Origin: an uncultured Methanomassiliicoccales archaeon
Lineage (GTDB): Archaea > Thermoplasmatota > Thermoplasmata > Methanomassiliicoccales > UBA472
Direction: 5' to 3'
DNA: 64,000 nucleotides
Assembly: GCA_963695345.1 (NCBI GenBank)
Contig: OY968769.1
Span: 1,024,001 to 1,088,000 of the forward strand
Positions 13,833-14,780 of the stretch are shown here, in pieces (position 1 is the first letter of the stretch; each line of letters opens with the position of its first letter). The notes under the pieces are model-generated. The model had not been told where the DNA came from. It searched no databases and saw only the letters and a program-made list of their open reading frames with translations. The position numbers and the translations under genes were made by a program.

Positions 13833-13887
13833 AGGCTATTCCTTCTAAGCGATGGTTAGGGACAGACCCTCGGGGGAGCCTCCCTTT

Positions 13888-13953
13888 TCAGATACCCAAT
13901 ACCAGCTGCTCGACCACTACGATAAGTACTGGAGTCTGAGCAACGCTGAGCAT
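13888..13953 (-). CDS. Putative BCAA-rich leader peptide MLSVAQTPVLIVVVEQLVLGI (attenuator uORF)
   Basis: Manually translated; 12 of 21 residues L/I/V; TATAAATA begins 31 nt upstream of the ATG; GC hairpin after the stop; lies upstream of ACT gene and ilvE. Confidence 0.7.
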   Translation of the reverse strand: MLSVAQTPVLIVVVEQLVLGI

Positions 13954-13979
13954 CGTCGATTGAATTGTAAGGAATATAT

Positions 13980-14780
13980 TTATAGGTTCTCATCGGGAGG
14001 CTCACACAGCGGTACTGGTTCCCTATACTCCCCCTCTTTGATGATTCTCTTCAGGAATGAACGTGTCCTTTCGTTCGTCGGGTTCGTGAATATGGTCTCC
14101 GGAGTGCCCTCTTCTGCGATTACCCCCTGGTCCATGAAGATGACCCGGTCGGCCACTTCCCGGGCGAATCCCATCTCGTGCGTCACGACCACCATGGTCA
14201 TTCCGGTGTTCAGGGCCAGGTCCTTCATGACGTCCAGCACCTCACCGATCAGTTCGGGGTCCAGGGCCGACGTCGGCTCGTCGAACAGTATGACCTTGGG
14301 GTTCATGGCGATGCACCGGGCGATGGCGACACGCTGCTGCTGCCCGCCGGACAGTTGGCCAGGATATGCGTCCGCCTTCTCTTCCAGACCGACCTTCTTC
14401 AAGGCCTCGATCGCCAGCCGGTCCGCCTCCTCCTTTTCAATGCTCTTGACCTTAAGGAGAGCCAGGGAAACGTTCTTCCTCACCGTGAGGTGCATGAAGA
14501 GGTTGAAGCTCTGGAACACCATGTTCATCTGCGTCCTGACCGCGTTGATGTCGATGTCCTCTAGCCGTCATGTCGTACGCCTTCGAACAGGACCTTTCCG
14601 CTGGTCGGTTCATTCAGCAGGTTCATGCAGCGGAGCAAGGTGCTCTTGCCGCTTCCGCTTGGTCCGATGATCACGACGCACCTCGTTGGGCATTATGCTT
14701 CAGGGATATCCCTTGGAGGACCTCGTGGTCCCCGAAGGACTTTTTCGAAGGTCCATGGTCTCGATGATCGGGTTCGCCAT
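13980..14780 (-). CDS. Polar amino acid ABC transporter ATP-binding protein, GlnQ-like (several frameshifts in 14530-14750)
   Basis: [49 protein letters not shown] visible at about 14645-14670. Confidence 0.88.

Follow-up and report, generated by a model that had tools for sequence, protein, structure and literature searches.

A short open reading frame (ORF) rich in branched-chain codons stands in front of the ilvE operon in a 64,000-nucleotide (nt) stretch of DNA from an uncultured Methanomassiliicoccales archaeon (contig OY968769.1, positions 1,024,001 to 1,088,000; this whole stretch is called the window). Comparison of genome sequences suggests that this upstream ORF (uORF) is probably a regulatory leader through which the ribosome senses Ile, Val, and Leu, and that it is one of a set of such leaders, which head the ilvE operon, ilvB, and leuA.

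The leader lies on the minus strand of the window. Its TATA box, read from the sequence, is TATAAATA (13984-13977; TTAAATA in relatives), and the ATG of the uORF (13953-13951) is found 31 nt past the first T of this box. The inner TAA of the box (13982-13980) is also the stop codon of the upstream frame, which encodes an amino-acid ABC-transporter ATPase. The uORF (13888-13953, in the ORF listing) comprises 21 codons plus a TGA (13890-13888) and encodes the peptide MLSVAQTPVLIVVVEQLVLGI. Twelve of its 21 residues are Leu, Ile, or Val; six of the codons form a central run (V L I V V V, codons 9-14, 13912-13929), and the final five sense codons read L V L G I (13891-13905). A hairpin, P2 (AGGGA...UCCCU, 13858-13885), with AAGGGGAG as its 5′ arm, starts 2 nt past the uORF stop. 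The original prediction had described this box, this start, and a uORF with 12 Leu/Ile/Val residues in 21, and all its coordinates proved correct on re-reading; the order that it gave for the elements behind the stop (a hairpin, a Shine-Dalgarno (SD) sequence, an ORF of 85 codons, an ACT-domain gene, and ilvE) is confirmed by the sequence and by family matches.

How unusual is such an ORF in its own genome? A blind scan for a TATA-like box followed 27-35 nt on by the start of an ORF of 8-45 codons returned 86 candidates, among which the window uORF has the highest Leu/Ile/Val share (0.57). Its run of six ties for the longest: only one other candidate, a GTG-started frame of 22 codons, contains a run of six, and a paralogous frame 2 kb off has a run of four. 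Runs of at least four occur in 5 of the 86 ORFs; three of the five head genes for branched-chain amino acid (BCAA) synthesis, namely the window uORF and two ilvB leaders. Among long ORFs of the same genome, the TATA-to-start distances peak locally at 29-32 nt. The full 166-nt leader folds more stably than most of its shuffled versions (z -2.28; 5 of 200 are equally stable). The window alone is thus partly above chance, and the case for a leader is made by the comparison across genomes. A rough scan that looked for leaders enriched in any other amino acid gave 223 matches, none of which could be supported; a frame in the window that ends in four Thr codons (about 32917, minus strand) was rejected, being devoid of promoter-like context.

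To follow the leader in relatives, orf85, the gene that starts next behind it, was used as a query against 60 related genomes, 36 from the same family and 24 from other families of the order. It is present in 22 of the 36, which include all or nearly all sampled members of five genera; it was found neither in three other genera of the family nor in any of the 24 genomes from other families. Two sets of loci were compared: 23 loci from the window's own genome and its relatives, spanning five genera, and 25 loci from public species genomes, all titled Methanomassiliicoccales or Methanomassiliicoccaceae metagenome-assembled genomes or similar. Many of the latter represent the same species as the former; the sets overlap and hold about 25 distinct uORF sequences. 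The order ABC ATPase, leader, orf85, ACT gene, ilvE is kept in 23/23 loci, with the leader co-oriented with the operon, and each of these loci presents a TTAAATA-type box, an ATG 29-33 nt on, 19-21 codons of which 8-12 specify Ile, Val, or Leu, a TGA, and a hairpin 0-3 nt later. The leader is likewise found in all 25 public loci, one of which has a TTAAGTA box and one a GTG replacing the ATG in place. The nucleotide sequences of different genera can hardly be aligned (MAFFT), yet the start, the length, the stop, and the peptide pattern persist: a variable first third, then 4-6 successive Ile/Val/Leu residues (this run is interrupted in genus g4), a few polar residues, and Ile/Val/Leu up to the stop. 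In every lineage such codons adjoin the stop, as in ...DIVLVQRVLGI, ...VIVVYVSGQLVI, and ...KIIVLLVSERYVVI.

Two side observations concern the flanks of the ilvE-type leader. In genera g3 and g8 (L009, L010, L012, L014-L016, L021), about 100 codons of other sequence separate the conserved end of the ABC ATPase from the leader; the leader therefore travels with orf85, the ACT gene, and ilvE rather than with the transporter. The spacer that separates the TATA box from the uORF (13954-13976 in the window) contains an ACAAT/ATACAAWCG-like motif which, judged by eye, is kept in five genera (the window and L002-L023); it could possibly be an operator, a promoter-proximal element, or the site of a regulator that acts on top of the leader.

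The second class of leaders precedes ilvB. In the window's own genome (C1), leaders at 1589264 and 1587302 (minus strand), which are the 22-codon frame and its paralogue from the scan, lie directly before two tandem ilvB genes for the large subunit of acetolactate synthase, with ilvC behind; both have a TATA box 31 nt before the start and a hairpin at the stop. Across the order, 69 ilvB upstream regions were collected (L055-L100 and L121-L124 among the leader loci). A leader is present in 48 of the 49 regions from families f1-f6, the sole miss being a second tandem copy, and in 0/20 regions from family f7. The start lies 30-31 nt past the TATA box in 46 of the 48. Most of these leaders begin with GTG; in one family ATG replaces it without a shift, and the stop alternates in place between TGA and TAG. 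Such swaps of ATG for GTG and of TGA for TAG without any shift in position are marks of a real start and a real stop. The ilvB leaders have 20-26 codons and close with 5-7 terminal Ile/Val/Leu codons, giving endings such as VVLLVL, AVVIL, VVVVLIR, VVIIIS, and GIIIR. Outside the order, three genomes of a phylum-wide sample of 160 (the order included) matched the ilvB query, and none of the three has the leader.

The third class precedes leuA. In the same genome (C1, about 548400-548560, minus strand), a 14-codon frame lies before a leuA-like gene that heads a leuA-leuCD-leuB-like cluster; this frame has an SD of its own, its TATA box lies some 50 nt before it, and Leu accounts for three of the five codons at its end. 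In loci L125-L154, 30 in all and from eight genera, a ranking that used Leu content picked a frame of this type (14-20 codons, SD-led, Leu-rich) in 29, and one is visible by eye in the remaining locus. A test that is independent of Leu points the same way: the commonest 8-mer shared by the 200 nt upstream of leuA is found in 23/30 loci, in every one of which an open short frame translates it as Leu-Leu-Arg. A CAUUGC-like conserved motif is seen past the stop of the leuA short frame. With mixed Ile/Val/Leu before ilvB and ilvE and Leu before leuA, the codons of each leader match the pathway that it heads. No comparable leader was found in this genome before ilvD, ilvC, two further HMGL-like genes, an aconitase-family gene, or two genes of the isopropylmalate/isocitrate dehydrogenase family. 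A short frame with three consecutive Ile codons does lie about 300 nt upstream (C1, about 2010300, plus strand) of a second HMGL-like gene near 2010613, which possibly encodes a citramalate or homocitrate synthase.

Are the hairpins at the stop codons maintained as structures? In the ilvE-type hairpin, the 3′ arm changes in concert with a conserved 5′ arm. In genus g2 (13 sequences), 97.1% of the cells of this hairpin pair, as compared to 42-83% with slid partners; four cells are changed on both sides, and 0/500 shuffles reach the observed value. The ilvB-type hairpin starts between -3 and +2 nt from the end of the stop codon and folds clearly more stably than its shuffled versions (median z -2.44; 34 of 46 below -2). 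In an alignment fitted with a covariance model, which leans towards structure, 81.7% of its cells pair versus 36-65% with slid partners, 14 cells are changed on both sides, and again none of 500 shuffles attains the observed value. Homology of the two hairpin types was considered and set aside: the ilvB model R1 matches just one ilvE-type hairpin, and weakly (L054, E 0.37), so a common origin is not shown. The original prediction had proposed two comparative checks, for a uORF with BCAA bias that is conserved in Methanomassiliicoccales and for covarying hairpins. The first turned out positive in the 23 and the 25 loci, and covariation is seen in both the g2 ilvE-type and the ilvB-type hairpins. 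The ribosome-dependent BCAA sensor that it envisaged thus gains support from sequence conservation, from the in-place exchange of starts and stops, from covariation, and from the matching ilvB and leuA leaders. By eye, an AUUGU/AUUUG-like motif recurs at a fixed distance, 4-9 nt past the hairpins of ilvB leaders and of g2 ilvE-type leaders (L013-L023, L055-L100). This motif, of which the window's genus shows no sign, may be a pause, termination, or processing site.

What kind of constraint acts on the short frames? In groups of equal-length leaders, the numbers of variable columns at the first, second, and third codon positions are 54/51/63 in the first part of the leaders and 28/21/38 in the last ten codons. 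The early part thus varies to a similar degree at all three positions and the end mainly at the third; the frame is kept and the peptide is mostly free to change apart from the regulatory codons, as would be expected if the ORF were a sensor and not a functional protein. Minor codons for Val and Leu are common: 6/12 and 7/11 of the Ile/Val/Leu codons have a usage of at most 16%. The column counts bear on an alternative in which the frames encode functional small hydrophobic peptides, for example ones that partner acetolactate synthase, the transaminase, or the neighboring transporter, and sense nothing. The frames are indeed conserved and hydrophobic, and their C-termini (VLGI, VVVVLIR, VVIIIS, GIIIR) are kept within lineages. 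However, the residues of the N-terminal halves are freely replaced, hydrophobicity comes almost exclusively from Ile, Val, and Leu (before leuA, from Leu), and runs of 4-7 hydrophobic residues are too short for a membrane helix; nor would a working peptide give any role to the fixed contact between stop and hairpin. We regard this explanation as unlikely.

How would a ribosome-sensed leader control the ilvE operon? The TATA-to-start geometry of the ilvE-type and ilvB leaders matches that of the leaderless class in the window's own genome, from which we infer that the uORF start is leaderless; contigs from RNA libraries nevertheless cross this start. The transcript would begin at or next to the uORF start codon, and the ribosome would load at the 5′ end. 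If charged Ile-, Val-, or Leu-tRNA ran short, it would pause on Ile/Val/Leu codons; held on the last of them, it would sit over the stop and over the 5′ arm of the hairpin, which would then stay open and allow the genes to be expressed. Occlusion of the hairpin by a paused ribosome is plausible, being part of the simplest two-state model that suits both the anatomy and the logic of biosynthesis, and the presumed response is ON in starvation. When the tRNAs are plentiful, the ribosome would terminate and leave, the hairpin would form, and downstream expression would fall. The output step is a guess: either hairpin-dependent pausing or termination at the conserved AUUGU-like site, or termination of the untranslated leader that depends on FttA, a Rho-like archaeal termination factor (PMC13681488). 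We give even weight to belief and disbelief in the broader proposal that the three leader classes constitute a ribosome-read BCAA regulon, in which a paused ribosome holds the hairpin open and thereby prevents the archaeal transcription machinery from terminating prematurely.

The RNA evidence is weak and consists of contigs from four metatranscriptome libraries that derive from relatives at 88-95% identity; the stretches that they leave uncovered say nothing firm about the transcript start. Two contigs run without a break over the uORF, the hairpin, and the start of orf85: X1 record 5 (13819-13968) and X4 record 32 (13675-13941), the end of which at 13941 likewise tells nothing firm about where the transcript starts. 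The leader is therefore present in the RNA libraries and joined to the operon, with DNA carry-over possible. The same contigs would suit a uORF that is translated in a purely constitutive way, without responding to amino acid supply, be it by loading ribosomes onto a leaderless 5′ end, by protecting the RNA, or by setting the downstream level; the leaderless geometry and the failure to find an antiterminator would suit it as well, but it leaves unexplained the enrichment in the very amino acids that are made by the headed genes, the placement of these codons against the stop, and the frequent minor codons, and we give it little credence.

Several findings weigh against a ribosome-sensed leader, or at least against its simplest form. 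The first is excessive conservation. Among eight species of the window's genus (g1), the uORF varies at just 2 of 66 positions while the neighboring coding sequence varies; one of the two changes is synonymous and the other replaces Leu with Gln. Such near-invariance exceeds what codon counting needs and points to an added role at the RNA or DNA level; a further constraint of this kind on the g1 uORF is likely, the candidates by eye being the spacer motif and the AUUGU-like motif past the hairpins. Could that role be the whole story? A structured cis-acting RNA, or a protein site on the DNA or RNA, might sense BCAA without translation, the frame being a by-product. This possibility draws on the near-identity of the uORF nucleotides in g1, synonymous sites included, and of the 3′ half in g2; on the conserved motifs outside the frame (the ATACAAWCG-like one, and the AUUGU-like one past the hairpins); and on the covariation of the hairpins. 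It runs counter to the observation that the frame, its length, the TATA-to-start distance, and the position of the stop before the hairpin outlast nucleotide divergence between genera. Also against it, start and stop codons are swapped in place, the leuA frame has an SD of its own, and the amino acids encoded suit the genes that come next (Leu in the case of leuA, a mixture of Ile, Val, and Leu in those of ilvB and ilvE). Searches with the Rfam 15 covariance models gave no match in 13800-14000 at E up to 10 and nothing relevant in 12000-16000, and the fold within the uORF is not above chance. Sensing without translation is thus improbable.

The second group of contrary findings concerns RNA structure. 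The window hairpin (-12.9 kcal/mol) is unremarkable, with a z of -0.19 and 73 of 200 dinucleotide shuffles folding equally well, and the ilvE-type hairpins are weak as a set (median z -1.06; 5/25 below -2). A long stem within the uORF that encloses the Ile/Val/Leu run, proposed from minimum free energy folds and conserved by eye, was dropped: with z between -1.9 and +0.7 against dinucleotide and synonymous-codon shuffles, it is above chance in 0/17 lineages. RNAalifold returned no pairs on a MAFFT alignment of 19 leaders; the stems are out of register between genera. Folds, shuffles, and consensus structures revealed no mutually exclusive terminator and antiterminator pairings that overlap the uORF. 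No intrinsic terminator is evident in the window's genus, where the hairpin lacks a U tract, as read from the sequence in the window itself; the original prediction had already suggested from this absence that the hairpin may work by way of translation initiation or factor-dependent termination instead of intrinsic termination. In other genera, only short U-containing motifs follow the hairpin (AUUGU, UUUGU, and U5 in a few).

The third group concerns the mechanism and the transcript. The longest run in ilvE-type leaders lies 8-13 codons before the stop, and a ribosome paused there would fall short of the hairpin. Archaeal RNA polymerases are not known to need hairpins to terminate. A translational version, in which the 3′ arm would hide the SD of the next gene, was rejected since its effect is small and of the wrong sign: when the 5′ arm of the hairpin is masked, without control masking of other segments, the predicted accessibility of the ilvB SD and start drops from 0.57 to 0.47, going down in 27 of 48 cases and up in 2 of 48. 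Finally, two low-depth contigs, X1 record 6 (13949-14090) and X2 record 10 (13876-13993), extend beyond the uORF into the ABC gene that precedes it, so that read-through transcripts or DNA in the libraries are possible.

The genes of the operon downstream of the leader also lie on the minus strand. An SD-like GAAGGA (13840-13845, read from the sequence) precedes the ATG (13832) of orf85 (13575-13832), which encodes a small conserved protein. Its product has no relative in Pfam, NCBIfam, or Atlas; it consists of a hydrophobic N-terminus followed by the invariant pattern W.STPKYP...DNG..D.GY..PI.K.H...Y, and its gene is always found between the leader and the ACT gene (L002-L023). The ACT-domain protein (ACT_AHAS_ss, 13237-13578) resembles the small subunit of acetolactate synthase and scores below the NCBIfam cut-offs; ilvE (12230-13156), for the branched-chain amino acid transaminase, passes two NCBIfam equivalog cut-offs. 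Behind it lie genes for a 2-oxoacid:ferredoxin oxidoreductase of the pyruvate/2-ketoisovalerate family (9980-12144), a gamma-delta fusion (12144-11146) and an alpha subunit (11239-9980).

Several genes of this genome have broken frames where those of relatives are intact. The C-terminus of orf85 (13575-13660) is out of frame in the window's own genome relative to seven congeners, the ABC ATPase (13980-14784) is broken over three frames, the adjoining permease (about 14831-15465) is apparently split, and both ilvB copies of this genome have open frames of 173 and 195 aa versus 576 aa in congeners. The genome is a single contig, 85% complete, and the out-of-frame genes are likely to reflect indel errors of assembly. 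A 272-codon open frame on the plus strand (13852-14670), which lies opposite the ABC ATPase and also overlaps the leader, probably arises as an artefact from antisense sequence rich in G+C.

How do these leaders compare with known ones? The classical BCAA attenuators are those of enterobacteria: ilvL of ilvGMEDA, ivbL of ilvBN, and leuL of leuABCD. As in these, a short ORF rich in cognate codons lies upstream (codons for Ile, Val, and Leu together in the case of ilv genes, for Leu in that of leu genes), the leader continues into a hairpin, and several operons share the signal. Unlike in these, the setting is archaeal, with a start that appears leaderless and with an archaeal-type polymerase and termination factors; no 1:2, 2:3, and 3:4 pairings were found, the hairpin abuts the stop, and a U tract is missing in the window's genus. 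Rho-dependent termination is the output of TnaC, the leader of the E. coli tryptophanase operon. TnaC stalls the ribosome at the end of its ORF, beside the stop, where the ribosome covers the RNA just downstream; it senses free tryptophan via the nascent peptide and induces a catabolic operon (PMC8429421). The archaeal leaders would share with it the position of the stall, the cover of the RNA behind the stop, and possibly the factor-dependent output. They conserve little of the N-terminal peptide, however, and the signal that they read is likely to be the charging of tRNA.

Two other bacterial systems come close. The mycobacterial polycysteine short ORFs, dubbed a ‘ribulon’ (Canestrari et al., bioRxiv 10.1101/834739), are leaderless first cistrons, as the archaeal uORFs are presumed to be; like these, they have consecutive codons for the amino acid of the operon and occur at several loci; they belong to bacteria and read Cys, and the duplex that sequesters their ribosome-binding site and is opened by the stalled ribosome found no counterpart among the archaeal leaders, in which the computed effect is small and has the opposite sign. 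The ilvBNC attenuator of Corynebacterium glutamicum likewise places a leader peptide and hairpins before acetolactate synthase genes, but in a bacterium and with a three-hairpin model, as opposed to the single hairpin supported here (PMC11857589). Because neither alternative pairings with a U-tract hairpin nor a duplex that sequesters the ribosome-binding site were encountered, the archaeal leader would be a variant of ribosome-mediated control outside both types. Full-text searches of the literature turned up no archaeal leader-peptide attenuator, with the proviso that subscription journals lie largely beyond their reach and an older report may have been missed.

Leader-peptide attenuation is a textbook bacterial mechanism, which needs a ribosome close behind the polymerase; archaea possess a eukaryote-like polymerase and the FttA termination factor. 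The leaders thus bear on whether archaea steer transcription by translation. If the proposal is true, it would be the first case of leader-peptide-type attenuation in Archaea, and it would give direct genetic evidence of a functional coupling between archaeal transcription and the leading ribosome. With a TATA box, some 20 codons, and one hairpin, the leader set is a simple test object. It also flags short unannotated ORFs that genome annotation misses, and it reveals a possible control of amino acid biosynthesis in a widespread order of methanogens that is known mostly from metagenomes.

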